Part shown: positions 5,519 through 55,777 of the stretch, in pieces
How positions within the stretch are numbered: the stretch's first letter is position 1
Layout of the letters: each line of letters starts with the position of its first letter
Origin: Ignavibacteria bacterium
GTDB lineage: Bacteria; Pseudomonadota; Gammaproteobacteria; Burkholderiales; Rhodocyclaceae
Reading direction: 5' to 3'
Length of the DNA: 64,000 bases
Assembly: GCA_050259835.1 (NCBI GenBank)
Contig: JBLNBJ010000212.1
Location: 5,772 to 69,771, forward strand
Notes under the pieces: generated by a model
The model's database searches: none
What the model was told of the DNA's origin: nothing
The model's input: only the letters and a program-made list of their open reading frames with translations
Translations under genes and position numbers: made by a program

Positions 5519-7869
5519 TGCACGCGGTTCCGGATCATCAGGCCCACCTCGTCGGCTTCGATCGGGCGGCAGAAGAAATAGCCCTGGGCGTCGCAGCAGG
5601 CGTGGTTGCGCAGGAACCAGAGTTGCTTTTCGGTCTCGACGCCTTCGGCGACCACGCGCAGGTTCAGGCTGTTCGCCACCGCGATGATGGCGTTCGAAAT
5701 CGCCTGGTCGTTGGCGTCGGTGTCGAGGCCTTCGACGAAGGAGCGGTCGATCTTCAGCGTATCTACCGGCAGGCGCTTGAGGTAGCTCAGCGACGAGTAG
5801 CCCGTGCCGAAGTCGTCGATCGACAGCCGGATGCCGAGCGACTTGAGCTGCCAGAGGATGTCCATGACCTCCTTGGCGAACTGCATCACCATGCTCTCGG
5901 TTAGCTCGATTTCGAGCCACTGCGGGGCCAGGCCGGTCTCGTCGAGGATTTCGGCGACGCGTTCGGCGAAGCGCGGATTGCGCAGTTGGCGCACGGACAT
6001 GTTGACCGCGACGCGCACCGGCGCGAGGCCCAGCTTCTGCCAGGCCACGTTCTGGCGGCATGCTTCGCGCAGCACCCATTCGCCGATGCTGCCGATGAGG
6101 CCGGAATCCTCGGCCACCGGGATGAAATCCGCCGGCGGGATGTCGCCGCGCGTCGGGTGGTCCCAGCGCAGCAGCGCCTCGAGTGCGACGATGCGGCCGG
6201 TTTCGATCTCGATCTGCGGCTGGTAGACGAGGCGCATTTCGTCGCGCTCCAGCGCGCGGCGCAAGCCGTGCTCGAGCTCGAAGACATCGCGCGGCTGGCC
6301 TTCGTGGCCCGGCCGGTAGAACTGGTAGTTGTTGCGGCCGGCTTCCTTGGCGCGGTACATCGCGATGTCGGCATGCTTGACGAGCGTCTCGACGTCCTCG
6401 CCCGCCAGCGGATAGACGGCGATGCCGATACTGGCGCCGATGACCAACTCCTTGTCCTCGAGATGGAAGCTCCTCGACATGCTGTCGATGATCTTCTCGG
6501 CGACGTTGGCCGCGCCGGCCGGGCCGGCGACTTCAGGCAGGATCACGGTGAATTCGTCGCCGCCCAGGCAGGCCACGGTGTCCTGCTCGCGCACGGCGCC
6601 GCTGATGCGTTCGGCGGCAAGCTGCAGCAACCGGTCGCCGGCGCGGTGGCCGAGCGTGTCGTTGATCAGCTTGAAGCGGTCGAGGTCGAGGAACAGCAGG
6701 CCGACGCCGGTGCCGCTGCGCTTGGCGTGCGCCATCGCGTGGCGCAGACGGTCGGTGAACAGCACGCGGTTGGGCAGTTCGGTCAGCGCGTCGAAATGCG
6801 CGAGGTGGTGGAGGCGCTCCTCGTTTTCCTTGACGACGCTGATGTCGGAGAACACCGCGACGTAATAGACGATGCAGCCGCTGGCGTCGCGCACCGCGCT
6901 GATGTGCAGCCACTCCGGATAAACCTCGCCGTTGCGGCGGCGGTTCCAGATCTCGCCCTGCCACTGACCGGTGACGACCAGCTCGTTCCACATGGCGTCG
7001 TAGAAACTCTCGTCGTGGCGTCCGGATTGCAGGATGCTGGGGTTCTTGCCCATCACCTCCTGCGGCAGGTAGCCGGTCACGGCGGTGAAGGCGGGATTGA
7101 CGGAGATGATGTTGCCCACGCCGTCCGTCACGAGGATGCCTTCCTGCGTGTTCTGGAATACCTTGTCCGAAAGCTGCAGCCGCTGCTCGGCGCGGCGCCG
7201 TTCGCGGATGTCGGTCATCAGGAAGAGCAGGCCATCGGGGCTGCCGTCGCGCGCATTGAGCGGCGCGGCATGCATGGCGACCTCGACGCGTTCGCCGTCC
7301 TTGGTCTGGCGTACGGTCTCGAAATCGGCGACGACGCGGCCGCCGGAGATCTCGCCGGAGAGGCGCTCGAAATCCGGCCACTGGTCGCTGCCGAGCAGCG
7401 GGCAGCGCATGCCGAGGACCTCTTCGGCGCGCCAGCCGAACATGCGCTCGGCGGCCGGGTTCCACAGGCGCACCGTACGGTCGGGCGAAAGCGCGATCAG
7501 CGCGACCGGCAGCGAGTGCACCAGCGAGGCAAGCAGTTCGCCTTCCTTCTGCAGCGCCTGGCGCATGCGCAGCGAGGGCGTGATGTCGCGCAGCACGGCG
7601 ACATAGGCGGGCGCACCGGCCCATTCGGATTGCGCCACCCGCATCTCCGCCAGACCCCAGCCGCCGTCGGCCTGCGGGATCTCGATTTCCGTCGATTCGC
7701 CGGCGGCGACCGGGAAGCCGAAGTTGCTGCCGGTGAGCTCGGTGTCGGCGCAGCCGAACAGCATGCCGCTGGCGCGATTGGCGAAGCGCACGAAGCCGTC
7801 GCCGTCGACGACCACGATGCCGTCGGGCGCGTCTTCGATCCAGCGCAGGGCCGAGGCGGGCAGCGTCAT
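5515..7869 (-). CDS. PAS-PAS-PAS-GGDEF-EAL c-di-GMP turnover protein
   Basis: 784 aa from ATG 7869 (MTLPASALRWIEDAPDGIVVVD). Three PAS-like segments are followed by an intact 'GGDEF', then 'EALLRW', 'DDFGTGYSSL' and 'KIDRSF'. The track ORF start at 8079 would overlap kaiB out of frame. Confidence 0.9.
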   Translation of the reverse strand: MTLPASALRWIEDAPDGIVVVDGDGFVRFANRASGMLFGCADTELTGSNFGFPVAAGESTEIEIPQADGGWGLAEMRVAQSEWAGAPAYVAVLRDITPSLRMRQALQKEGELLASLVHSLPVALIALSPDRTVRLWNPAAERMFGWRAEEVLGMRCPLLGSDQWPDFERLSGEISGGRVVADFETVRQTKDGERVEVAMHAAPLNARDGSPDGLLFLMTDIRERRRAEQRLQLSDKVFQNTQEGILVTDGVGNIISVNPAFTAVTGYLPQEVMGKNPSILQSGRHDESFYDAMWNELVVTGQWQGEIWNRRRNGEVYPEWLHISAVRDASGCIVYYVAVFSDISVVKENEERLHHLAHFDALTELPNRVLFTDRLRHAMAHAKRSGTGVGLLFLDLDRFKLINDTLGHRAGDRLLQLAAERISGAVREQDTVACLGGDEFTVILPEVAGPAGAANVAEKIIDSMSRSFHLEDKELVIGASIGIAVYPLAGEDVETLVKHADIAMYRAKEAGRNNYQFYRPGHEGQPRDVFELEHGLRRALERDEMRLVYQPQIEIETGRIVALEALLRWDHPTRGDIPPADFIPVAEDSGLIGSIGEWVLREACRQNVAWQKLGLAPVRVAVNMSVRQLRNPRFAERVAEILDETGLAPQWLEIELTESMVMQFAKEVMDILWQLKSLGIRLSIDDFGTGYSSLSYLKRLPVDTLKIDRSFVEGLDTDANDQAISNAIIAVANSLNLRVVAEGVETEKQLWFLRNHACCDAQGYFFCRPIEADEVGLMIRNRVH

Positions 7870-42373: not shown

Positions 42374-43567
42374 TCAGACGCCCAGCCCGGCGATCAGGTC
42401 GTACACCGGGCCGAGCACGGACACGACGATCCAGACCATCATCCCGCCGATGACGAGGACCGCGGCGGGTTCGGCGAGCGCCTGCAAGCGGTCCACGCCT
42501 TCGCGGACGTCGCGATGGAAGAAGTAGCTGACGTTGGCGAGCGCCCGGTCGAGCTCCCCCGTGCCTTCGCCCACGCGCAGCATGCGGACCACTAGCGGTG
42601 GAAACAGGCCGACGCGATCGAAACCGCCATGGACGGTGTCGCCGGCCGCAATGAATCGCGCGGCGCGCCGCAGGCCGCGCGCGATTTCGCCATTGCCGAC
42701 CACCTTCTCGGCCGTGCGGATGGCGTCGAGCACGGGGATGCCGGCGCCGTAGAGCAGGGCGAACACCGTCGCGAAGCGCGCCAGCAGCAGCTTGCGCAGG
42801 ATGCCGCCGAAAACCGGGAGGCGCAGCTTGGCGGAATCCCACAGCACGCGCGCGCGGGTGTTGCGACGCAAGGCGACGACCGCGGCGGCGGCCACCGCCG
42901 CCGGTCCGCCGAGCGCCAGGGCCCAATGGTCGGTCAGTGCATGCGACGCGGATTCCAGCATCGCCGCATGCCAGGGCAGCGTGCGCCCCATGCCCTTCAT
43001 GAGTGCCGCAAAGCGTGGAACCAGATAGACGAGCATGAACAGGATCAGGCCGAGCGTCACGGCGGCAAGGACGGCCGGATAGGTGGCGAGCCGCCGCGCT
43101 TGTGCGGCCAGTTCGTCCTGCCACTTCAGCGAGGCGACGAGATCGGCCAGCACCTCGGGCAGGCGGCCGCTGTCCTCGCCGGCGCGAACGAGGTTGACGA
43201 CGATGGGATCGAAGGCCCGCGGGCAGGCCGCCATCGCCTCTGAAAGGCGCTTGCCGCCCTGCACGTTCTCCACCAGCGCGGCCAGCGTGTCTCGCAACTC
43301 CCACCGCGTGGCGCTGTCGCGCAGGTCCGCCAGGCTGTCGGTCAGCGGCACGCCGGCGCGCACGAGTTGTTCGAGATGGAAGCAGAAATGGATGAGCTCG
43401 CGGCGCGGCATGCGTTTGCCCGCGTGCCGCGGCAGCGGGTGGCCTTCGATCAGGTCGAGGCCCAGGCGCAGCAGCCGCGCTTCGAGATCGGCCAGGTTCC
43501 CGGCGTCGATGCGTCCCGCGACGATGGTGCCGGCCGAGTCCATGGCCCGATAGCGAAACAGCGGCAT
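42374..43567 (-). CDS. Type II secretion/type IV pilus platform protein (GspF/PilC/MshG family)
   Basis: 'MPLFRYRAMDSAGTIVAGRIDA' is a typical family N-terminus. Duplicated T2SSF domains and three TM segments. Confidence 0.85.
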   Translation of the reverse strand: MPLFRYRAMDSAGTIVAGRIDAGNLADLEARLLRLGLDLIEGHPLPRHAGKRMPRRELIHFCFHLEQLVRAGVPLTDSLADLRDSATRWELRDTLAALVENVQGGKRLSEAMAACPRAFDPIVVNLVRAGEDSGRLPEVLADLVASLKWQDELAAQARRLATYPAVLAAVTLGLILFMLVYLVPRFAALMKGMGRTLPWHAAMLESASHALTDHWALALGGPAAVAAAAVVALRRNTRARVLWDSAKLRLPVFGGILRKLLLARFATVFALLYGAGIPVLDAIRTAEKVVGNGEIARGLRRAARFIAAGDTVHGGFDRVGLFPPLVVRMLRVGEGTGELDRALANVSYFFHRDVREGVDRLQALAEPAAVLVIGGMMVWIVVSVLGPVYDLIAGLGV

Positions 43568-45282
43568 CACGACCTCCCGGACAGGTCGACCACGCGGGCC
43601 AGCTCGGCGAGCGACGTCGTGCCGTCGAGCACGCGTTGCATGCCTTCAGATGCCAAGCTGCGGAAGCCCTGGCTTGCCGCCGTGCGGCGAATCTCGCCGG
43701 CCGTCGCGCGGCGGGCGATCAGCTCGTCGATCCGCTCGTCGATGCGCAGGATCTCCATGATGGCCAGCCGGCCCCGATAGCCGCTGAAGCCGCAATGCTC
43801 GCAGCCGCTCTCGCGGTAAAGCAGCGGCGCCGGCCGGGCTGCGTCGTGGCCGAGCAACTGGAGCTCCCTCGTTTCGGGGGGGTGTGGCTTGCGGCAGTGC
43901 GGACAGAGGCGCCGCACCAGGCGCTGTGCGACGATGCCGACCAGGTTGCCGGCCATGATCTCGGGACAAACGCCGATGTCGACCAGGCGGGGAATCGCGC
44001 CGATCGCCGAGTTGGTGTGCAGCGTCGAGAACACCTGGTGTCCCGTCATCGCGGCGCGGAAGGCCATCGACGCGGTGTCGGCGTCGCGGATTTCGCCGAC
44101 CAGGATGGCGTCGGGATCCTGGCGCATCATCGCGCGTACCCCGTTGGCAAAATCGAGCTTGGCCGCCTCGGCCACCGAGGTCTGGCGCAGCATCGGCAGC
44201 GGGTACTCGACGGGGTCTTCGAGCGTCATGATGTTGATGCGCTCGGAGTTGATCTGGTTCAGCAGCGAGTAGAGCGTCGTGGTCTTGCCGCTGCCGGTGG
44301 GGCCGGTGACGAGCAGGATGCCTTCCGGGCGGGCCACCATCTCCCTGAGCAGGTCGAGTTGCTGCTCGCGAAAGCCCAGGCGCGCCAGCGGGACGATGCC
44401 TTTCTGGCGATCCAGGATGCGCAGCACGACGTTCTCGCCGTGCACCGTCGGCTGGGTCGCGACGCGGAAGTCGACGGGACGGCCGCTGACGCTCAGCGAG
44501 AAGCGGCCATCCTGCGGCGCGCGCGTTTCCGCGATGTTCATGCCCCCGATCACCTTGAGGCGGACGGCCATCGCCGACCAGTAGGACTTGTGCAGCGCGC
44601 GGACCTGGCGCAGCAGGCCGTCGACGCGGTAGCGGATGCGCAGGAAATGGGCTTCGGGCTCGAAGTGCATGTCGGACGCCTCCCGCTTCACGGCGTCTGT
44701 GATGAGGGCGTCGATCAGGCGGACCACGGGGTGGCTGTAGGACTCGGTCGCCGCGCCTGCGGCACTGCCATCGGGGATTCCGGTTTCGATTTCCTGCAGG
44801 ATGCCGTCGATCGAGAGCTCATGGCCGTAGCAGCGATCGATGGCGCGCGCGATGTCCGCCTCGCCCGCCAGCAAGGCCTCGATCCGGGTTTGCGTCGGCA
44901 CGATGGCGCGCAGCCGGTCCAGCGCCACCAGATCCGTCGTGTCGGCGAGAGCGACGGTGAACCTCCGGTCCGTCGGCTGGTAGTCGAGCGGCAGCATCCG
45001 GTGGCGTTCGGCTACCTCGCGCGGCACCAACGCCAGCGCCTTGGGGTCGACCACGGTTTGGGCGAGGTCCACCGCCTTTTGGCCGAGGCATTCGCTCAGG
45101 GCGTCGCGCAGGATGGCTTCGGAAATGAAGCCGAGCCCAACCAGCAGACGGCCGAGCAGTTGATAGGAGCGCGCCTGCTCGAGCAGCGCGATGCGCAACT
45201 GGTCTTCGCTGACGACGCCCTGGCTCAGCAGCACCTGGCCGATGAGGCGGCGCGCCGGGGGTGCCTGGACCTCGGTCGGCAT
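43567..45282 (-). CDS. GspE/PilB-family assembly ATPase with MshEN-like N-terminal domain
   Basis: ATG 45282 (MPTEVQAPP). Walker A 'GPTGSGKTTT', Asp box, Walker B 'ILVGEIRD', and a tetracysteine motif 'CPHC...CEHC'. The N-terminus carries two tandem 24-aa MshEN-like motifs. Confidence 0.85.
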   Translation of the reverse strand: MPTEVQAPPARRLIGQVLLSQGVVSEDQLRIALLEQARSYQLLGRLLVGLGFISEAILRDALSECLGQKAVDLAQTVVDPKALALVPREVAERHRMLPLDYQPTDRRFTVALADTTDLVALDRLRAIVPTQTRIEALLAGEADIARAIDRCYGHELSIDGILQEIETGIPDGSAAGAATESYSHPVVRLIDALITDAVKREASDMHFEPEAHFLRIRYRVDGLLRQVRALHKSYWSAMAVRLKVIGGMNIAETRAPQDGRFSLSVSGRPVDFRVATQPTVHGENVVLRILDRQKGIVPLARLGFREQQLDLLREMVARPEGILLVTGPTGSGKTTTLYSLLNQINSERINIMTLEDPVEYPLPMLRQTSVAEAAKLDFANGVRAMMRQDPDAILVGEIRDADTASMAFRAAMTGHQVFSTLHTNSAIGAIPRLVDIGVCPEIMAGNLVGIVAQRLVRRLCPHCRKPHPPETRELQLLGHDAARPAPLLYRESGCEHCGFSGYRGRLAIMEILRIDERIDELIARRATAGEIRRTAASQGFRSLASEGMQRVLDGTTSLAELARVVDLSGRS

Positions 45283-45290
45283 GACGGCGC

Positions 45291-46004
45291 TCACGGCGTC
45301 AGCTCCCGCAGCCGCGCCGTTGCGAGCGCCAGGTCGAACGCGGCCGGACGTCTGGCTGCTGCGGCCAGCGCCTTTTCGTAGAAGCGCCGCGCCGCCTTCG
45401 GCTGGCGCAAATGATCGAGGCTGACGGCCAGGTTGAACAGGTAGTCCGGCTGTTCCGGCGCGGCAGCGTAGGCGCTGAAGAACGCGTCCTGCGCGTCGCG
45501 CCAACGGCTCGAGGCGGCGTAGAGATTGCCGAGAGCGAAATGCAGGGAGGCTTCGTCGGGCTGCGCCGCGATCAGCGACTTGAGGCGGGTTTCGGCCGAC
45601 GCGTCGGGATAGCCGTTGAGCGCGGCCAGCCCCGCGATGGCGAACCCGTCGCGCGGATCGGCTGCGGCGGCACGGCGGTAGAAATCTTCGGCTCGCGTCC
45701 GGTCGTTCCTGCGCAGGGCGACCACGGCGGCGCCGTGCAGCGCGTCGCGGCAGTTCGGCGAGGATTTCAGCGCCCCCGCGTATTCGCGCTCGGCCGCCTC
45801 CAGGTTCCCGGCTGTCAGGGCATCGAAGCCGCGCTGCAGCGCCGGGTCGAGCCTGGCAGGCGTGCGGGTGACGCGCAGTTCGGGCTCCGCGTGCGCCGGG
45901 GAAATCGGCAATGCCGACGGCAGCCCCGCCATGACGGCTGAGAGACAACACGCGAACCGGATCAGTGCGCTCGGCGTGCGGCTGGCGGTCGCCGCCCGAC
46001 TCAT
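45291..46004 (-). CDS. Secreted TPR-repeat protein (MshN-like)
   Basis: 237 aa. Signal peptide, then about five TPR-like units (e.g. 'ALGNLYAASSRWRDAQDAFFSAY'). ATGA overlap with the secretin gene. Confidence 0.65.
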   Translation of the reverse strand: MSRAATASRTPSALIRFACCLSAVMAGLPSALPISPAHAEPELRVTRTPARLDPALQRGFDALTAGNLEAAEREYAGALKSSPNCRDALHGAAVVALRRNDRTRAEDFYRRAAAADPRDGFAIAGLAALNGYPDASAETRLKSLIAAQPDEASLHFALGNLYAASSRWRDAQDAFFSAYAAAPEQPDYLFNLAVSLDHLRQPKAARRFYEKALAAAARRPAAFDLALATARLRELTP

Positions 46005-47824
46005 CGCGCCTGGCCCTCGTCGTTTGCGGCAAGCGGCGCCGCGCGCGGAAGAAAGGCGCGGTAGTGGGCGAGGTCGCCCGAAAGGGAGGCGTCCTTCAGA
46101 ACGAGCGGGCGCAGGAAGATGACCAGCTCCGTCCGGCTGCGAGAGTCGTCGCGGTTCTCGAACAGGCGTCCGACCAGCGGCAGCGAGGACAATCCCGGCA
46201 CTGACTCCGTCGTCTGGTTGGCGCCGTCCTCCATCAAGCCGCCCATCACCACGATGTTTCCGCTATCGACCCTGATCACCGACTCCATCTCGCGCGTGCG
46301 GATGACGGGGATGCGGTTCCGGATGTTGAGCCGCTGCAGGTCGGGGTTGGGATCCTCGATGCTGCCGTATTGCCGCGAGATGCTGGGACGCAGGTTGAGC
46401 AGCACGGTGTCGTTGGCGGCGATTTGCGGCGTGACGTTCATGACGAGCCCGACCGGAACCGAATACAGGTTCGTCGTGTAGGTGGTCACGGTGGTGGTCT
46501 GGTTCGCGGTCGTATCCGCCTTGACGGTGAAGTAGACGAGGTTGTCGACCACCTTCAGGACGGCTGTCTGGTTGTTCACGACGGACAGCTTCGGGCTGGA
46601 AATCACCTTCACCTTGCCAAAGGTCTCCAGCAGCGAAAGCGTGGCTGAAATGCCGAGTCCCGGCGCGACGTAGTTGAGCAGGAAGGCGTTGCCCGTGGCG
46701 GCGAAGGGATCGAGCGGCTTGCCGGCAGCGTCGAATCCGGCGGGGCTCTCCGCCACCGAGACCCCGGCGCTCGGCGGCCCCGGACGCAGGCTGCGCAGGC
46801 TTTGCCAGTGGACGCCCTGCTGGTAGCGGTCGCTGAGCGTGACCTCCGCGATCGTGGCCTCGATCAGCACCTGCCGGTGGGCGCTGAGGGAAACGTGGTC
46901 GAGGAATTCCTGGACCTTTTCGTGCTGGCGGCCGGTGGCGCGGACGCTGACGATGCCGGCCTCCGGATTCACGATGACGGAGGCCGCCTCGCGGAAGGTC
47001 GTGCGCCGGACGACCGTGGTGCCCGACTGCTGCGCCGTGGTCGGCATCGCGGCCGCGGGGGCGGGCCTGCGTGCCGCGGCGCTGTTGCGTGCGTGCGACT
47101 GCGAGGGCGACGGAGTCGGGGCCACGGTGCCGGTCTGCTGGTCCTGATGCTCGAAGACCGTTTCGTTGGTGCCCTCGGGCAGGATCTTGTCCGTTTCCCG
47201 CAGCAGGTCCTTGAGGTTCCGTTCCAGCGTTTCCCAGAAGCGATGCTGGGCCTTGTTCTCGATCTTGGTCAGCGAGTTGTTGCCGCCGCTGCCCGGTGTC
47301 CCGGTGGCGAGGGACTCGGCGCCCGCGGCCGTGGCGATCTGCGTCGTCACGGCCACCGCGCCGCTGGTGTCGCGCGCCATGTTCACGTAGTCGACGCGGT
47401 ACGTACGCAGGAATGGCGAGTCGGGCATCACGGCGAGCGTCGTGCCGTCCAGTTCCCATCGCATATCCACCTGCCTGGCGATGCGCGTCAGCAGTTGCGG
47501 CAGGGTCTGGTCGACGGCGTTCAGCGTCACCGTGCCATTGATGCCCGGGTGGACGTCCACGTTGAGCTTGGCATCGCGCGCGAGCACGAACAGAAGTTCC
47601 TGGGCCGGCACGTTGTTCACCACGACGCTGTAGGTCTCGATGCGGGGTGCCGCCTTGGGGCCCGGCAGCGCCGAACTGACGAGCACCGGCGGCGGAATGC
47701 TGCCCGCAGTGGCGGGGACGTCCTGCGCGTCGAGATGTCCGGTGCCAGTGGAAGGCGTGGTGGGGTGTGCGCACGCGGCCACCAGGGTGACAAGAAGGAT
47801 CGCCGCAGGACGGGTGCTCTTCAT
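46001..47824 (-). CDS. Secretin lipoprotein (MshL/PilQ/GspD family)
   Basis: Lipobox 'LVAAC'. The C-terminal secretin domain has 'VVMGGLMED', 'VPGLSSLPLVGRLF' and 'ELVIFLRPLV'. Confidence 0.85.
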   Translation of the reverse strand: MKSTRPAAILLVTLVAACAHPTTPSTGTGHLDAQDVPATAGSIPPPVLVSSALPGPKAAPRIETYSVVVNNVPAQELLFVLARDAKLNVDVHPGINGTVTLNAVDQTLPQLLTRIARQVDMRWELDGTTLAVMPDSPFLRTYRVDYVNMARDTSGAVAVTTQIATAAGAESLATGTPGSGGNNSLTKIENKAQHRFWETLERNLKDLLRETDKILPEGTNETVFEHQDQQTGTVAPTPSPSQSHARNSAAARRPAPAAAMPTTAQQSGTTVVRRTTFREAASVIVNPEAGIVSVRATGRQHEKVQEFLDHVSLSAHRQVLIEATIAEVTLSDRYQQGVHWQSLRSLRPGPPSAGVSVAESPAGFDAAGKPLDPFAATGNAFLLNYVAPGLGISATLSLLETFGKVKVISSPKLSVVNNQTAVLKVVDNLVYFTVKADTTANQTTTVTTYTTNLYSVPVGLVMNVTPQIAANDTVLLNLRPSISRQYGSIEDPNPDLQRLNIRNRIPVIRTREMESVIRVDSGNIVVMGGLMEDGANQTTESVPGLSSLPLVGRLFENRDDSRSRTELVIFLRPLVLKDASLSGDLAHYRAFLPRAAPLAANDEGQAR

Positions 47825-49067: not shown

Positions 49068-49218
49068 TGTGCTGCTTTCCAGATAATCGGGAGGGAAATT
49101 CTAGCCTTTCTCCCACGGCCATCCGCGCCGCGTTATGCGGCAGGGTACCGGGGCAGTTGATTGGTATGGCCCGATCCGGCCGTTCGCCTTGGCTACCGGA
49201 ACCCAATTTCTCCGCTGG

Positions 49219-52200
49219 TTAGTGTCCCATGGCCTTTATGGCCTTGGTGCGCACGACCTGCGTGACGTCATCTGCGCAGCCATTCTGCTCGGCCTTATCA
49301 AGAATACCGACGGCCTCGCTGGCCCTGTTCTGCGAAATCAGCCAGCGAGCTTCGTCGTTGTAGAACGCGGGATTCCGGCTGTTGGCGGAGATGCGTTCGC
49401 GCCGTAGGCGAGAGGCAGTCTCGCCGTCGCCAAGTTGTTCGAGGGCTATCGCTCGGACGGAGAGCGTAGAGTCGGTGGCGCTGCCCACTTGTTCCACTTG
49501 ATCGAGAATGGTGATTGCTTCAGAAGGTTTGCCTCGGTCTATGAGCCAGCGCGCTTCGTCATTGAAGAGCGCAGCATGGCGGCTGCCGGCGCTAATGCGT
49601 TCGCGCCGTAAGCGGGATGCGGCCTCGCCGTTTCCGAGGCGCTCAAGGGCAGTTACTCGGACGGTGTGCGTGAAGTCGTTGACGCAGCCGGCCCGTTCAG
49701 CCTGATCGAGAACCGCTGATGCTTCGCCGCTCTTGCCCTGATCGATGAGCCAGCGGGCATGGTCGTTGTAGAACGCGACGTGGCGGCTACCCGCTGCAAT
49801 ACGGTTGAGCCGCAAGCGCGAAGCTGCCTCTCCATCGCCAAGTTGCTCGAGACAGCTTGCTTGCACCGTCAAGACATGGTCGTTCAGCGCACTGGGGTTG
49901 CTCTCGGCTGCGACAGTTAGGGCATCGAGGAACTCTCGAATTGCCACTTCACCGGCCTCTTGGCTGGCACGTCCCCAGTCGGCCCAATAGGGGGGGAACC
50001 CAGGGTCAAGCATGCAAGCGCGGGCGAAGCACTCGCGGGCACGCGGACTAGCCCAGCTCTCCTCCTTGGCCCAGCATTCGCCGAGGAATCGCAGAACTCG
50101 ATGGTTGTCAGGCTGAAGTCGCGACCAGTAGTCGAGTACGATCCGGTTCTTGCGGTGTTCTCCGGCTTGTTGCAGATAAGCGGATAACCGGCCGAGTCTT
50201 TGTACTACACCACCCAGATTGCTACCAAGCAGTTCCTGCGCGATTTCGGATAGCCGCTCCGATTCGCCCGCAGCAGCAAGGTGGTGCAGCGCTTCGAGCG
50301 CGCGTTCGATGTTCGGTTGGGTTACCGTGTGGCGGCTCGCGAGTTGATCGAGCCAGCATTTGGCGATGAGGCTATGCGTTGCGGTAAGCGGCGAAACGCC
50401 AGCGGCGTCGTCGTCCAGCGACGTATCGCGGAGTTGGAGGCGACGCCATTCGGAGACGAATCCGTGCAGATAGAAGCGTTCCTGGCGGGCGTCAGTAGAA
50501 AGCAGGCAGCGCCGGAACAAGCTTTGCCAAGCCCCTGCGGCGTCGAGTTCCCTTTCAAGCCTCTCGATGTGGTCGTTAGGCAGCGCATGGCGGTAGAGCG
50601 CCACCGCATCGAGGAAACGGCGTTCCCCCTCAGTCAGCACGTTATCGTAGAGATCGGCGAGCAAGCCCTTTTCAACCTCCGCGACAGCTTCCTGGCGATG
50701 GCGCTTGAAGGTTTCCAGCGGCGATTCCTTGCGACCGAGGGCGACCTGCACCAGCAGGCGGCTTGCCAGGGGGTGGGCCTGGCCGCCGTGGTCGACGCCA
50801 AGCCAGCCGTGGAGCGCGCGCAGGTCGTTGCCGCCGTAGCGCCACAGTGCCGCCTCTCCGGGCGGCGCTTGGCTTTCCAGGTAGCGTGCGAGGCTCTCCC
50901 GCTTCAGGCCCGAAATCTCGCATTCCACTGTATCGCGGCCGAGCAACCCGGGCGGAGGACGCTCCCGCATTTCCAGCACGATTCGCCAGCGGCCGCCCCA
51001 AGCCTTCAAAATGCCAAGCAGCAGAGCGGACAAGGCCGTATCTCGCCAGACGCCGTTGTGCAACAAATGCTGGGCGTTCTCGATCCAAAGCCAGAGTGGC
51101 TGTGGATTCGGATAGCGCCGCTGAAGTTCGGCGGCGGTGGCTGCTGGGGTCTCCACGGTTGGAACGTCGGGAAGCTCCTCAGTTGCGCCCATTGTGTGCG
51201 CAAGGCTGCGAAATAGGTTGGAGGCTGTGGTGTCCGGCCAGGCCGATAGACGTATGGAGTCCGACCCTGCCAAGGGGGCGAGCCGCCCGAGTTCGGCAAT
51301 CACTGTGCTCTTACCGATGCCTCGCATGCCATAGATGACGGCCGCCGTTGCATTCGTCAGGTCTTGCGATACTCGCCCGAGCAACTCGTCGCGTCCGAAG
51401 ATGCCTCTGCTTTCCGGGCTGGCGGGGTTTTCCGGTGGCGTCGCAGGCGCGGCAACCGGCGCAGCCGCATTCGGAAAAGTGGCGTACGAACGCGGGTCGT
51501 CCGCAAGTCGACTCGCAATGCGGCGCGGCAGCGGAACCGGCCACACTCCACGTGGGGCATGTTCAGCTACTGAAGCCATCTTCCAGCCGCCCTCTGCGTG
51601 GTCGAAACGATGCAGATGTACTTTGCCAACCCCTACCAGGTCAAGGCGCACCAAGTTGAAGCCGAATTCCGGTGGTGTATCCGCGCAGAGTGCGCCAGCG
51701 CGAATGATGGCATGGTTAACCCCGGGCTGTACCCACGCATCATGGCTGTGACCGTGGAGCCAGAAATCGAAGCGCGTGGTCATGCGCTTTTCCACAATCT
51801 CCCGTTCGTATTCGTTAAACCAGTCGAACGGATGGTGGATGAGTCCGATGCGCACTTGGGCTTGCTGTATCGGCTCGGCCAAGCGGTTGAATTGCCATTC
51901 GGCGCCTAACCACAGATGGCGGTCATCCTCGGGACCGGCACAAGACCAGGCCGAGTTGAAGCCGGCAATGCCGACATCCAGGCCGCTGAGGTGGACGGTG
52001 CGCTCGTACACATGCCGACCTTCGGGGTCATTCAGATGTGGAAAATGTTCAGCAACAAAGGTGCCGTAAGCATCAAGGCGGGGAATGATGGTTTCCCATG
52101 TTCGGTTGCGGCGCTCGATGGCGGCGTCCAGCCCGGCGTGCTGTTTCCGGCAGTCCTTGGCCCAATTCCTCAAGGCGCTTTGCTGCAATGCCTCGACCTG

Positions 52201-52506
52201 GGTGCGGTCGATGTCATGGTTGCCCGGTACCAAGAACATACGCTTTTTGTCGCAACCGCAAACCTGGGCCAGCCGGGTGAAGAACTTGCCGGCAGTCTCG
52301 TACTGCAGCTTCAGCGATTCTTTCTCGGAGATCTCACCGAAGGCAATGTCACCCGTGCAGAACACCAAGTCCGGCTTCGTGCCCAGATGATTGAGTTCCC
52401 CAGTCAGGTAGTCGAGGAAGCGATCCTGAATGGCATTGTCCCGCCATGCATTGGCGGGACGGAAATGGATGTCCGACAGGTGCAGCCAAGTGAGTTCCGT
52501 CTTCAT
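49219..52506 (-). CDS. Calcineurin-like metallophosphoesterase - STAND P-loop NTPase - TPR-repeat protein (1095 aa)
   Basis: - ATG 52506 (MKTELTWLHLSDIHF); in-frame ATGs at 52554 and 52578 fall inside a hairpin and are less likely.
- Five phosphoesterase motifs in order: 'LSDIHF', 'GDIAFG', 'GNHD', 'HHPFDW', 'GHSHDAW'.
- Walker A 'GMRGIGKST'; Walker-B-like 'LWLWIEN'; NB-ARC-like 'ISGLKRESLARYL'.
- The C-terminal 400 aa are TPR-like and include three 68-aa tandem repeats.
- The upstream part of track ORF 49219..54429 is an out-of-frame read-through of lpdA. Confidence 0.8.
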   Translation of the reverse strand: MKTELTWLHLSDIHFRPANAWRDNAIQDRFLDYLTGELNHLGTKPDLVFCTGDIAFGEISEKESLKLQYETAGKFFTRLAQVCGCDKKRMFLVPGNHDIDRTQVEALQQSALRNWAKDCRKQHAGLDAAIERRNRTWETIIPRLDAYGTFVAEHFPHLNDPEGRHVYERTVHLSGLDVGIAGFNSAWSCAGPEDDRHLWLGAEWQFNRLAEPIQQAQVRIGLIHHPFDWFNEYEREIVEKRMTTRFDFWLHGHSHDAWVQPGVNHAIIRAGALCADTPPEFGFNLVRLDLVGVGKVHLHRFDHAEGGWKMASVAEHAPRGVWPVPLPRRIASRLADDPRSYATFPNAAAPVAAPATPPENPASPESRGIFGRDELLGRVSQDLTNATAAVIYGMRGIGKSTVIAELGRLAPLAGSDSIRLSAWPDTTASNLFRSLAHTMGATEELPDVPTVETPAATAAELQRRYPNPQPLWLWIENAQHLLHNGVWRDTALSALLLGILKAWGGRWRIVLEMRERPPPGLLGRDTVECEISGLKRESLARYLESQAPPGEAALWRYGGNDLRALHGWLGVDHGGQAHPLASRLLVQVALGRKESPLETFKRHRQEAVAEVEKGLLADLYDNVLTEGERRFLDAVALYRHALPNDHIERLERELDAAGAWQSLFRRCLLSTDARQERFYLHGFVSEWRRLQLRDTSLDDDAAGVSPLTATHSLIAKCWLDQLASRHTVTQPNIERALEALHHLAAAGESERLSEIAQELLGSNLGGVVQRLGRLSAYLQQAGEHRKNRIVLDYWSRLQPDNHRVLRFLGECWAKEESWASPRARECFARACMLDPGFPPYWADWGRASQEAGEVAIREFLDALTVAAESNPSALNDHVLTVQASCLEQLGDGEAASRLRLNRIAAGSRHVAFYNDHARWLIDQGKSGEASAVLDQAERAGCVNDFTHTVRVTALERLGNGEAASRLRRERISAGSRHAALFNDEARWLIDRGKPSEAITILDQVEQVGSATDSTLSVRAIALEQLGDGETASRLRRERISANSRNPAFYNDEARWLISQNRASEAVGILDKAEQNGCADDVTQVVRTKAIKAMGH
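49250..49865. repeat. Three tandem 204-nt (68-aa) coding repeats in the STAND protein C-terminus
   Basis: Anchor strings atgcgttcgcgccgtaggcg (49391), atgcgttcgcgccgtaagcg (49595) and atacggttgagccgcaagcg (49799) are exactly 204 nt apart. The peptide unit is ..LE.LG.GEAASRLRRERISAGSR.AAFYNDEARWLID.GK.SEA..ILDQ.E..G... Confidence 0.85.
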
Positions 52507-52548
52507 GGCGAGGGCGTGATTCAGATTGCCGTCGATGATGCCATGAAA

Positions 52549-52583
52549 CGCCATGACGGCGAGATGGCTCGCCGCCATGACCG
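52549..52583 (-). terminator. Hairpin between the lpdA stop and the STAND gene start (possible PDH-operon terminator/attenuator)
   Basis: Arms cgccatgacggcgag / ctcgccgccatgaccg form about 11 bp with one mismatch and a 4-nt loop. The trailing U-tract on the minus strand is weak (GUUUCAU). Confidence 0.3.
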
Positions 52584-52592
52584 CCAAGCACG

Positions 52593-54383
52593 CTACTTCT
52601 TCCGCGGCGGCGGCAGGTCGGTGCAGCTGCCTTCCGCCACTTCGGCCGTGAGGCCGATGGACTCGCCCAGCGTGGGGTGGGGGTGGATAGTCTTGCCGAT
52701 GTCGACGGCATCGCAGCCCATCTCGATCGCCAGCGCCACTTCGCCGATCATGTCGCCGGCGTTGGGGCCGACGATGCTGCCGCCGACGACGCGATGCGTC
52801 TCCTCGTCGAACACCAGCTTGGTGAAGCCGTATTCGGCGCCGTTGGCGATGGCGCGCCCGGAGGCCGCCCAGGGGAACTTCGCCGCGCTGACCTTGCGGC
52901 CCTGCGCCTTCGCCTCGTCCTCGCCCAGTCCGACCCAGGCGACTTCGGGGTTCGTGTAAGCGACGCCGGGGATCACCTGCGCATCGAAATGGCTCTTCTC
53001 GCCGGCCGCAGCTTCGGCGGCGACATGCGCCTCGTGCACCGCCTTGTGCGCCAGCATCGGGTTGCCGACGATGTCGCCGATGGCGAAGATGTGCGGGACG
53101 TTCGTGCGCATCTGGCTGTCTACGCCGATGAAGCCGCGCTCGTCCACCGCCACGCCCGCCTTGTCGGCGTCGATCTTGCGGCCGTTGGGGCTGCGCCCGG
53201 CGGACTGCAGGATCATGTCGTAGCGCTGCGGCTCGGCCGGGGCGTTCTCGCCTTCGAACTTCACCCAGAGGCCGTCGTCCTTCGCATCCACGGCGACGGT
53301 CTTGGTCTTGAGCATGATCTTGTCGAAGCGATGAGCGTTCTGCTTCTCCCAGACCTTCACCAGGTCGCGATCCGGTCCCTGCATCAGGCGGTTGAGCATC
53401 TCGACGACGTCGACCTTGGCGCCGAGGGTCGAATAGACCGTCGCCATTTCCAGGCCGATGATGCCGCCGCCGATGACCAGCAGTCGTTGCGGCTTGCCGC
53501 GCAGTTCCAGCGCACCGGTGGAATCGACGATACGCGGGTCTTTGGGCAGGAAGGGCAGATGCACGGCCGCGGAGCCCGCGGCGATGATGCACTTCTGGAA
53601 GCGCACCACCTTCTTCGCGCCGGTCTTCTCCTGCGCGCCGCCCGTCGTCTCCTCGACTTCGAGATGACGGGCATCGAGGAAGTGGCCGTAACCGCGCACC
53701 ACATCCACCTTGCGCGCCTTCGCCATGCCGGCGAGACCGCCGGTGAGCTTGCCGACGACCCTGGCCTTGTGGGCGCGCAGCTTGTCGATATCGACTTGCG
53801 GCGCGGCGAACGAAACGCCGAGATCGGCCATGTGCGCCGTCTCGTCCATCACCGCGGTCACGTGCAGCAGCGCCTTCGAGGGAATGCAGCCGACGTTGAG
53901 GCAAACGCCGCCCAGCGTCCCGTAGCGCTCGACCAGCACCGTCTTCATGCCGAGGTCGGCGCTGCGAAACGCAGCCGAGTAGCCGCCGGGACCGGCGCCG
54001 AGCACCAGCATGTCGGTCTCGATGTCGGCCTTGCCGGAATAGCTGCCGGCCGCCATGGGAGCCGGCGGGCGCGCTGCGGGCGTCGGCGCCGACAGCGGTG
54101 CCGTGGCCGGCTGCGGCCTGGCCTCGGGCGCGGCGGGCGCGGCTGCGGCGCCGGCGGCGTCGAGCACCACGATGACGCTGCCTTCGGAGACCTTGTCGCC
54201 CAGCTTGACCTTCACTTCCTTCACCGTGCCGGCGGAGGGCGCCGGCACGTCCATGGTCGCCTTGTCCGATTCCAGCGTGACGAGCGAATCCTCGGCATTG
54301 ACCGCGTCGCCCGGCTTGACGTGGATCTCGATGACCGGGACTTCCTTGAAGTCGCCGATGTCCGGTACCTTGACTTCGCTCAT
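52593..54383 (-). CDS. lpdA: Dihydrolipoyl dehydrogenase (E3) with N-terminal lipoyl domain
   Basis: ATG 54383 ([12 protein letters not shown]...[12 protein letters not shown], a lipoyl domain). Then '[10 protein letters not shown]', the redox disulfide '[13 protein letters not shown]', and 'HPHPTLGE'. ATGA overlap with aceF. Confidence 0.95.
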
Positions 54384-55777
54384 AGCTCGGTCCTCCGGAA
54401 GTCGGCCAGCAACTGCGCGAGGTAGGCATTGAAGCGCGTCGCCAGCGCGCCGTCGACGACGCGGTGGTCGGCGGAGAGCGACAGCGGCACCATCAGGCGC
54501 GGCACGAAAGCCTTGCCGTCCCACACCGGCTTCATCGCCGAGCGCGAGACTCCGAGGATGGCGACTTCAGGCGCGTTGACGATGGGCGAGAAGGCGGTGC
54601 CGCCCAAGCCGCCGACGCTGGAGATCGTGAAGCTCGCGCCCTGCATCTCGGCCGGACCGAGCTTGCCGTCGCGTGCCTTCTTCGACAGCTCCGCCGTCTC
54701 CTTGGCGATCTCGAGCACGCCCTTCTGGTCGGCGTTCTTCAGCACCGGCACGACCAGGCCGTTCGGCGTGTCGGCGGCGAAACCGATGTGCCAATAGCGC
54801 TTGAGCACCAGTTCGTCGCCGTCGAGCGAACTGTTGAGTTCGGGGAATTTCTTGAGCGCGGCGACCACCGCCTTGATGATGAAGGCGAGCATGGTCAGCT
54901 TGATGCCGGCCTTCTCGTTCTCCTTGTTGAGCTGGACGCGGAAGGCTTCCAGCTCGGTGATGTCGGCCTCCTCGTGATACGTGACCGCCGGGATCATCAC
55001 CCAGTTGCGCGCCAGGTTCGGTCCGGAAAGCTTCTTGATGCGCGACAGCGGCTGGCGTTCGATGGCGCCGAACTTGGCGAAGTCCACCTGGGGCCAGGGC
55101 AGAAGATTGAATCCGCCGCCGAGCGGGGCGCCGGCGGCCGGTGCAGCGGTGCCGCCGGACAGCACGCCCTTGACGTAGGCCTGCACGTCGGCTTGGGTGA
55201 TGCGGTTCTTCGGGCCGGTGCCCTTGACCTTGGCGACGTCGACGCCGAGTTCGCGCGCGAACCGGCGCACCGAGGGGCTCGCGTGCGATTTGCGTCCGTC
55301 GCTCGCTTCGATCAGTTCGGCGGGCGAAGGCATGTGGATGTCGGGCGGCGCGACCGTCGGTTCGGATTCGGTCGGCCGGAAGTCCTCCTGCAGTCGCGGC
55401 GCCGCCTGGGGTGCCGCCGCGACGGCCGCGCGCGCGGCCTCCGGGGACGGCGTCGCGGGCGGGGGCACCGCGGGCGCGGCGGCCTGCCTCGGGGCTTCCG
55501 CCGCCTTGGCGGGTTCGGCGGCGACAGCCCGCGCACCGGCCGCTTCCAGCAGGACGATCACTGCGCCCTCGGAGACCTTGTCGCCGATCTTGACCTTCAC
55601 TTCCTTCACGACGCCGGCGGACGGCGCCGGCACGTCCATCGTGGCCTTGTCCGACTCCAGCGTGACCAGCGAGTCCTCCGCGTTCACGCTGTCGCCGGGC
55701 TTGATCTGGATCTCGATGACGGGGACATCCTTGAAGTCGCCGATGTCGGGTACTTTCACCTCCGTAATGGCGGCCAT
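54380..55777 (-). CDS. aceF: Dihydrolipoamide acetyltransferase (PDH E2)
   Basis: Lipoyl domain ('[13 protein letters not shown]'), E3-binding domain ('[15 protein letters not shown]') and the catalytic 'SADHRVVDG'. Confidence 0.95.

Follow-up and report, generated by a model that had tools for sequence, protein, structure and literature searches.

The gene between lpdA and rpiA

The window analysed here is the whole 64-kb stretch of contig JBLNBJ010000212.1 from position 5,772 to position 69,771, and the element of interest is a complete gene on its minus strand (49219..52506, delimited by open reading frame (ORF) translation and by homologues). The gene lies between lpdA, the last gene of the pyruvate dehydrogenase (PDH) operon, and rpiA, and it encodes a calcineurin-like metallophosphoesterase (MPE) joined to a STAND nucleoside triphosphatase (NTPase) of the nSTAND6 clade and a tetratricopeptide repeat (TPR) array. 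We consider the product to be, probably, a single-protein anti-phage sensor-effector of the Avs/NLR-like kind that was horizontally acquired into the lpdA-rpiA junction. The ORF runs from an ATG at 52506 to a stop at 49219-49221 with its 3288-nt frame intact, giving a product of 1095 residues plus the stop; aceE, aceF and lpdA precede it and rpiA follows, every one in the same orientation as the gene; the place between lpdA and rpiA and the shared orientation had been described in an original prediction made without database searches. As full-length homologues reach E = 0 against the product, comparison indicates that the ORF is real and not a chance frame. The gene is found just downstream of lpdA in four independent Logan assemblies, with rpiA next in the three that are long enough, and its sequence is identical across four metagenome assemblies. 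Because the independent assemblies agree in this, the locus is not an assembly chimera.

Four parts and a linker make up the protein, and all are encoded on the minus strand. Pfam, PADLOC, NCBIfam and an AlphaFold2 model assign residues 1-335 (51502..52506) to the MPE domain, which is modelled as a beta-sandwich at a predicted local distance difference test (pLDDT) score of 93 and which has an insert of three helices at about residues 106-154. Pfam Metallophos (PF00149) covers residues 8-256 at 35.0 bits against a cutoff of 21.5 (E 2.5e-8). The full series of metal-ligand motifs (DxH, GDxx, GNH[DE], H, GHxH) is present as LSDIHF (10-15), GDIAFG (52-57), GNHD (95-98), HHP (224-226) and GHSH (252-255), providing D12/H14, D53, N96/H97, H224/H225 and H253/H255. 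A disordered Pro/Ala-rich linker (residues 336-368, 51403..51501; pLDDT <50 at 338-366) leads into the P-loop nucleotide-binding domain (residues 369-530, 50917..51402). Here Pfam nSTAND6 (PF25201) is matched over its whole length (model 1-148 of 148, residues 369-517) at 140.4 bits against a cutoff of 27.7 (E 6e-41), and motif searches locate the Walker A sequence GMRGIGKST at residues 393-401 (51304-51330) and a Walker B-like LWLWIE at residues 471-476 (51079-51096; LWLWIEN 471-477). AlphaFold2 secondary structure then outlines a helical, winged-helix-like STAND arm (residues 531-705, 50392..50916), and the remainder is a TPR-like alpha-solenoid, the presumed sensor (residues 706-1095, 49222..50391; AlphaFold2, profile search and Foldseek). 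In the model the solenoid is an uninterrupted array of ~26 paired helices (residues 706-1092, pLDDT >90). A family profile matches consensus-TPR structures at E 2e-45, with CTPR, OGT and PPR structures among the hits, and Foldseek of the solenoid also retrieves TPR proteins; Pfam TPR matches are weak.

The full-protein AlphaFold2 model, built on 45 homologues, has a mean pLDDT of 85.7. With its Walker A motif, a hydrophobic strand ending in D/E, a helical arm and a repeat sensor, the predicted protein has the general make-up of a STAND protein, and Foldseek matches it to the Pyrococcus STAND-TPR protein 6mfv (E 1.7e-10); a PDB sequence search with the NTPase and helical module gave no match even at E <= 10. 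In an alignment of 45 full-length homologues (33-45% identity overall), H9, D12, H14, D53, N96, H97, H224, H225, H253 and H255 of the MPE domain are invariant, as are G393, G396, G398 and K399 of the NTPase. Given this invariance of catalytic and Walker A residues, both enzymatic modules appear to be under selection as active sites. At E <= 1, Pfam finds no helix-turn-helix (HTH) or other DNA-binding family, and the parts named above cover the AlphaFold2 model entirely. A MalT/AfsR-type regulator was therefore rejected, as no DNA-binding output domain (LuxR-type HTH, OmpR/SARP) is found. The sequence reading behind the original prediction thus stands up well: the five MPE motifs, the P-loop and LWLWIEN occur in the order it gave, Pfam and AlphaFold2 return its effector / STAND NTPase / TPR layout with TPR-like repeats over the last ~400 residues, and the DNA-binding domain that it had named as the mark of a transcription-type STAND is missing from both.

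Composition and distribution both set the gene apart from its surroundings. Its GC content is 0.615 and its GC content at third codon positions (GC3) 0.689, against a GC3 of 0.89-0.92 in the flanking genes and of 0.845-0.924 across six neighbouring genes, and of 608 sliding windows of 3288 bp across the 64-kb window none has a lower GC content; the hand counts of GC in the original prediction hold, and the difference is stronger when measured in this way. By its LpdA, whose best matches are 90-92% identical, the host belongs to Rhodocyclaceae, and the gene is absent from all 80 loci of related species that were recovered with LpdA. The lpdA-rpiA gap is only 17-76 bp in five species, among them the closest relative (L024; LpdA 91.5% and RpiA 89% identical, junction 63 bp), and 476 bp in the second-closest (L005). 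Taken together, the low GC3, the absence from 80 loci and the empty junction in the closest relatives indicate, on this comparative evidence, that the gene is a horizontally acquired, lineage-specific single-gene insertion. It is clearly neither conserved at the junction nor native in composition, which favours the foreign single-gene island that had been proposed. At the insertion borders we found no target-site duplication and no terminal inverted repeat, and there is no tRNA in the 40-64 kb part of the window. Nor is there an integrase or transposase among the Pfam-scanned flanking ORFs on both sides, a scan that was not exhaustive, in agreement with the earlier statement that none is nearby.

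In about 17 other species the same junction holds 0.9-5 kb of unrelated cargo, making it a generally variable slot in Rhodocyclaceae and relatives and not a defence island. Judged by ORF length and N-terminal sequence only, with no family search, none of this cargo looks defence-related; it includes a thiolase-like ORF, a ~560-aa protein and an LpxH-like plus glycosyltransferase-like pair. The idea of the junction as a defence hotspot was rejected, since the cargo elsewhere, judged in this way, looks metabolic or unrelated. Two small features of the junction in relatives may be mentioned. In L024, a terminator-like hairpin with a T-run follows directly after lpdA (L024:1590-1665), an element that is gone in the window, and the 476-bp gap of L005 carries a separate small insertion at the same site, a 105-aa ORF on the opposite strand with a hydrophobic, membrane-like N-terminus (L005:2901-3218, minus strand).

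The immediate flanks bear on expression and on the choice of start codon. The minus-strand spacer of 86 nt that runs from the lpdA stop to the start of the gene (52507..52592) shows, on inspection, no terminator and no sigma-70-like promoter, which suggests read-through expression from the PDH operon. On the other side, a minus-strand spacer of 151 nt (49068..49218) separates the gene from rpiA, and comparison with relatives finds that similarity returns just a few bases ahead of the rpiA start. A public protein, P0001 (1119 aa), is 100% identical and starts 24 codons earlier, at an ATG at 52578; an exact-sequence look-up matched this 1119-aa version and left the 1095-aa product unmatched. The N-terminal consensus of the 45 homologues reads xxxxLTWLHLSDIHF, with ~4 residues preceding LTWLHLSDIHF, and for this reason the start at 52506 appears likelier than that of the public annotation. 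A 1736-aa ORF (49219-54429, minus strand) was rejected as the gene, its upstream 640 codons being an alternative frame of lpdA; this part translates as Arg/Gly/Pro-rich, non-coding sequence, and the frame stays open across the GC-rich lpdA. Such a high-GC frame artefact upstream of 52506 could mislead gene callers on the start. The NCBI record of P0001 reads 'MAG: Ignavibacteria bacterium'; as the flanking genes of its contig are 90-92% identical to Rhodocyclaceae and have a GC content of ~67%, the contig has probably been mis-binned. Beyond rpiA, positions 43567-47824 carry an opposite-strand yggX-like gene (PF04362, as seen in L001) followed by a secretin, a TPR protein and a PilB/GspE-like ATPase ORF, an MSHA/type IV pilus-like cluster in appearance and of native composition (GC3 0.85-0.89).

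Homologues and the exchange of both halves

The MPE domain scores far better against models built from defence proteins than against the generic family. NCBIfam DS8_antiphage matches residues 9-303 at E 1.5e-30, PADLOC PDC-S60 matches at E 8e-32, the PADLOC 'Effector/Endonuclease' model PDLC00736 at E 2e-26 and NCBIfam DS9_1 at E 1.4e-12, compared with E 2.5e-8 for Pfam Metallophos. A word-indexed search retrieved 437 full-length homologues, at most 45% identical, with a patchy distribution over Gamma-, Beta- and Deltaproteobacteria and Gemmatimonadota (Methylomonas, Massilia, Nitrosomonas, Lysobacter, Rheinheimera, Rhodoferax, Pseudomonas, Burkholderia, Desulfobulbus and Longimicrobiaceae among the hosts), and an exhaustive search gave 557 clusters (50% identity) at E < 1e-30, single-module relatives included. 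One full-length homologue (36% identity, L091:717-3689) occurs at one end of a 15-kb IMG/VR contig, IMGVR_UViG_2636415743_000002, that also encodes a split P4-type DNA primase/helicase (L091:4983-9983) and a tail-assembly-like protein; this contig may be a satellite or prophage with the homologue as cargo.

Many relatives share only one half of the protein. Among 17 sampled proteins that carry the nSTAND6-TPR chassis (32-42% identity across residues ~350-1090) behind another N-terminus, that position is taken by TIR in four (P0245, P0257, P0276, P0345), by SIR2 in another four (P0280, P0287, P0289, P0347) and by a divergent MPE in three. The other six have, one each, a bSEFIR domain (P0256), a PNP_UDP phosphorylase (P0251), a restriction endonuclease (REase)-like DUF4365 domain (P0250), a nucleotide cyclase (P0261), an nSTAND5 tandem and an N-terminus to which no family was assigned. 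The alternative TIR, SIR2, SEFIR and REase-like domains match the PADLOC models ThsB, ThsA/LmuA/Dsr2, bSEFIR and Ago-associated, respectively; the NTPase regions of these chassis relatives have no PADLOC match except for a marginal one to PDC-S27 in P0280 (E 6e-4). Conversely, MPE domains 30-50% identical to the one studied here are found on NACHT (with or without an FGE-sulfatase domain), on NB-ARC/nSTAND1 with TPR_12 and on Roc-COR, and are also fused to the adaptors EAD1, EAD7, bDLD1 and GAAD and to NUDIX. P0283 (841 aa) joins the MPE domain directly to an ATPase like PtuA of Septu (PADLOC PtuA, E 7e-143). In Septu, PtuA ordinarily works with an HNH nuclease, and P0283 may be an uncharacterised Septu-like system in which an MPE replaces that nuclease; its build can also be likened to the two-gene YydB/YydD pair of B. 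subtilis. Finally, the precomputed Pfam list gives P0052 (1244 aa) both TIR_2 and Metallophos on one nSTAND6 protein, which may be a double-effector variant.

The protein and its relatives thus have the architecture that defines Avs proteins, with an effector, a STAND module and a sensor, and with effectors that are exchanged among homologues. Conflict systems of the Avs/NLR-like kind are recognised by reciprocal shuffling of effector and sensor-switch parts (Kaur et al. 2021, PMC8195603; PMC13581612). By these comparisons both halves of the protein are swappable modules common to known defence proteins, and it is for this reason that an Avs/NLR-like anti-phage role appears to be the best reading.

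The C-terminal end of the presumed sensor has a history of its own. A repeat search (families D1/D2, 71-73% nucleotide identity) found three tandem repeats of 68 aa (204 nt) covering residues 886-1089 (49240..49851, minus strand). They are 62% identical to one another in this protein, and within 36 homologues the mean is 57%, with values up to 88%, whereas the same repeat position compared between proteins is just 38% identical. As identity within proteins exceeds identity between proteins at the same position, the terminal repeats appear to be homogenised within each gene and to evolve in concert. Recognition of a repetitive or oligomeric ligand and a structural or autoinhibitory role are both possibilities.

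Proposed mechanism, substrate and competing explanations

By analogy with Avs and bNACHT, the TPR solenoid and the nSTAND6 NTPase would keep the protein as an inactive monomer in the resting state. Binding of a phage-derived ligand, most likely a phage protein, to the TPR array would permit nucleotide-dependent oligomerisation of the NTPase, which would gather the N-terminal MPE domains and activate them. The active dinuclear-metal phosphodiesterase would then destroy an essential phosphodiester- or pyrophosphate-linked metabolite, so that the infection aborts. The case for defence is good but indirect, being built on domain logic and homology and not on the neighbourhood of the gene.

Which metabolite is destroyed can be narrowed to some extent. 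MisA (DS-9A, of the Metis system) is a calcineurin-like NAD+ diphosphatase that has the HAD phosphatase MisB as its partner and is activated by m6dAMP via an N-terminal PUA-like domain; as an abortive-infection effector it splits NAD+ into nicotinamide mononucleotide (NMN) and AMP and does not cleave ATP, and the authors predict that NAD+ diphosphatase chemistry is common in defence (bioRxiv 10.1101/2025.11.05.686725). Because no other activity has been shown for a defence MPE of this type, and because the other effectors found in the same slot are mostly consumers of NAD+ or nucleotides (TIR, SIR2, SEFIR, PNP), NAD+ or a related nucleotide, hydrolysed in the MisA manner to NMN and AMP, is our tentative preference if the role is defensive, one that may well turn out otherwise. 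On the same premise DNA or RNA would be a doubtful second choice, and a cyclic nucleotide would be more doubtful still.

Fold comparison of the MPE domain does not discriminate among substrate classes. After YydB, Foldseek returns the cyclic nucleotide monophosphate (cNMP) phosphodiesterase Rv0805 (E 3e-11), GpdQ and purple acid phosphatases, and then SMPDL3A/B, first at rank 16, and Mre11, first at rank 17, both at ~1e-7. It is on this point that the original prediction needs correction. The Avs/NLR-like role that it proposed is retained, on the strength of the swappable defence modules, but its analogy with Mre11/SbcD nucleases is weak, Mre11 being a distant fold match (E 1e-7, rank 17 or lower), and its claim of novelty does not hold either, as discussed below. 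The closest folds are not Mre11 (template modelling (TM) score ~0.46), no SbcC-like gene is a neighbour and there is no capping domain.

A nuclease version of the same defence architecture, in which a Mre11/SbcD-like or Septu-like MPE would degrade phage or host DNA or RNA, a target that the original prediction had named beside nucleotides, is therefore unlikely, even though several observations would fit it: the label 'Endonuclease' on PDLC00736, the fusion to a PtuA-like ATPase in P0283, the REase-like DUF4365 in the equivalent slot of one nSTAND6 protein and the significance of the Mre11 fold matches. These are outweighed by the position of Mre11 behind YydB, Rv0805, GpdQ and the purple acid phosphatases and about level with SMPDL3A/B, by the lack of a Mre11 capping or DNA-binding domain and of a Rad50/SbcC partner, by the activity of MisA, the sole biochemically characterised defence MPE of this type, which cleaves NAD+ and not ATP, and by the alternative effectors of the chassis, which are mostly NADases or nucleosidases. 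Quite improbable, in our view, is a signalling STAND outside immunity, in which the TPR array would sense an endogenous or environmental ligand and the MPE would act as a cAMP, cGMP or c-di-NMP phosphodiesterase that tunes second messengers. Such a layout would have its counterpart in actinobacterial adenylate-cyclase / STAND / TPR proteins; Rv0805, the best fold match among solved enzymes (TM 0.68 on target), is a class III cNMP phosphodiesterase, and the nucleotide-cyclase / nSTAND6 / TPR protein P0261 exists. It would also suit the solitary homologues amid housekeeping genes, with a site shared by two Pseudomonas species, and a gene 86 nt past lpdA that is probably co-transcribed with a metabolic operon. 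On the other hand, the gene is compositionally foreign and missing from the junction in every relative, its chassis otherwise bears TIR, SIR2, SEFIR, PNP and REase death effectors, its MPE domain is fused elsewhere to EAD and death-like adaptors, which are characteristic of conflict systems, and scores far higher with DS-8 and PDC-S60 (E 1e-30) than with generic Metallophos, and no cyclase or receptor gene is nearby as a partner. It is very improbable that the gene is a passenger, decaying or inert, that at present has no function in its host: foreign composition, the want of a recognisable promoter of its own and the assorted cargo at the junction in other species would be expected of a passenger, but the 3288-nt frame is intact, all catalytic and nucleotide-binding residues that are invariant in the family are present, and the same sequence recurs in the four metagenome assemblies.

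A number of results weigh against the Avs-like anti-phage role itself, or against parts of it. In eight chromosomal contexts (Methylomonas, Massilia, Nitrosomonas, two Pseudomonas, Rhodoferax, Lysobacter and one 8.4-Mb contig of an ENA/NCBI assembly) the homologue is in every case a lone gene amid housekeeping genes with no known defence systems, and toxin-antitoxin pairs (ParE, HicA) are adjacent in two. Enrichment in defence islands is thus not seen, in a sample of eight contexts that is too small for statistics, and the outcome comes close to what the original prediction had named as evidence against it, namely homologues that are never near defence genes. Two Pseudomonas species carry the homologue at one and the same chromosomal site, which suggests that inheritance there is stable and vertical. 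A search of 50,697 phage genomes gave no homologue, and plasmid matches are confined to the MPE domain (22-30% identity). In PADLOC-DB v2.0.0 no AVAST model matches the protein at E <= 1, the only two matches are confined to the MPE domain, and no PADLOC v2 model fits the NTPase or sensor part. A search of the accessible literature found no experiment on any nSTAND6 protein and no paper naming nSTAND6. As for the effector, the structural model of the MPE domain indicates a phosphodiesterase and does not fix its substrate, since a cNMP phosphodiesterase, GpdQ, purple acid phosphatases, SMPDL3 and Mre11 all match at E 1e-11 to 1e-7; the similarity to MisA is weak as well (E 7e-4 and 26% identity in a 90-residue alignment to an incomplete MisA sequence). 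On the sensor side, repeats that evolve in concert are unlike the pattern expected for a shape-complementary sensor of one asymmetric protein.

With these points taken into account, an Avs-like sensor-effector remains our preferred reading. A fuller version, in which a distinct and widespread Avs-like family of MPE / nSTAND6 / TPR proteins kills by NAD+ diphosphatase activity, recognises through its repeats a repetitive or oligomeric phage structure and not the surface of one asymmetric protein, and occupies solitary chromosomal sites away from defence islands, is unlikely to hold in all its parts; if it did, the NAD+ diphosphatase route is predicted to be immune to the NAD+-rebuilding NARP1 pathway of phages. 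Confirmation of the defence role would bring nSTAND6, a STAND clade of large size and wide taxonomic range with members in Pseudomonas, Burkholderia, Methylomonas, Nitrosomonas, Lysobacter, Massilia and numerous metagenomes, among the experimentally supported bacterial NLR-like sensors. It would likewise make the MPE effector, whose validation to date is limited to E. coli DS-8 and Metis, a general plug-in used on at least four ATPase chassis, and both the hydrolysis target of DS-8-type metallophosphatases and the ligand of a TPR sensor with homogenised terminal repeats would become directly testable. Genes of this kind lie by themselves in junctions between housekeeping genes and are missed when discovery relies on defence islands.

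Comparison with known defence systems

The closest validated system is DS-8 (DefensePredictor system 8, WP_032203427.1, NF053861), which is probably the same family as the PADLOC candidate PDC-S60. DS-8 is a single E. coli protein with a metallophosphatase and a NACHT module that has been validated against phages, and its defence is abolished by the metallophosphatase substitutions D52A and N84A or by the Walker A substitution K375A (PMC13092281). The protein described here resembles it in being a single polypeptide that begins with a calcineurin-like metallophosphatase, continues with a STAND-type P-loop NTPase and ends in a C-terminal region, and in its location outside classical defence islands. 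The metallophosphatases are homologous (BLASTP to DS-8 E 4e-9, ~23% identity in the shared domain); D52 and N84 of DS-8 pair with D53 and N96 in the BLASTP alignment, and K375 corresponds to K399 by motif. The two differ in the NTPase, which is nSTAND6 here, with no Pfam match to NACHT, and NACHT in DS-8, and in the TPR solenoid sensor ending in 68-aa repeats. The score against NF053861, 105.7 bits over residues 9-303 and model positions 1-281 of 994, also falls well below the equivalog cutoff of 790.

With MisA (type I Metis, NF053862) the protein shares a defence-type MPE with motifs I-III and the 'W-L-SDIHF' start; the match is limited to residues 7-114, and its 47.2 bits fall short of the cutoff of 420. 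Unlike MisA, it has no PUA domain, the MPE starting at residue 4, and no HAD partner, its neighbours being lpdA and rpiA; a STAND-TPR module takes the regulatory role instead. YydB of B. subtilis, which occurs with the ATPase YydD (9a6c, an integrative model), is the best fold match of the MPE domain (Foldseek E 2.7e-22, TM 0.79 on query, 18% sequence identity). Its pairing with an ATPase parallels the fusion of MPE and PtuA-like ATPase in P0283, although YydB/YydD is a two-protein pair whose ATPase is ABC/SMC-like and not STAND; a search of the accessible literature on the pair found no functional description.

The likeness to Avs proteins (Avs1-5, and Avs7-21 of PMC13581612) extends over the whole layout: an exchangeable effector at the N-terminus, a central STAND NTPase and a TPR-like sensor at the C-terminus, all in a single, patchily distributed and horizontally transferred gene, on a chassis with the same kind of effector repertoire (TIR, SIR2, nuclease, PNP). 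What separates it from Avs is the NTPase, which belongs to the separately defined nSTAND6 clade and is without a sequence relative in the PDB. The AVAST models match none of the 16 chassis or effector relatives that were scanned, and the SIR2-nSTAND6 relatives have PADLOC defence matches over SIR2 only, besides the marginal one to PDC-S27, with no AVAST/Avs5 model. By Pfam the protein is a bona fide member of nSTAND6, a family that covers the NTPase domain only and has been defined computationally in conflict-system catalogues; a STAND survey in Nature 2026 counts 198 defence-associated clades, and the STAND tree of PMC13581612 has 589 clades.

The original prediction had held that, since an MPE is not among the characterised Avs effectors, the protein could represent an undescribed family. 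This view is outdated, given the validation of DS-8, the characterisation of MisA and the existence of nSTAND6 in Pfam. Metallophosphatase-STAND defence, as in DS-8, and the chemistry of MPE effectors, as in MisA, are already known from work published in 2025-2026 and do not constitute a new principle, so that the present finding is an incremental extension of a well-established paradigm. By sequence comparison, the protein is not a member of DS-8, MisA or the AVAST families of PADLOC. What is new is the combination of an MPE effector with an nSTAND6-TPR chassis, which, unlike the experimentally validated DS-8, is known from sequence and a structural model alone.

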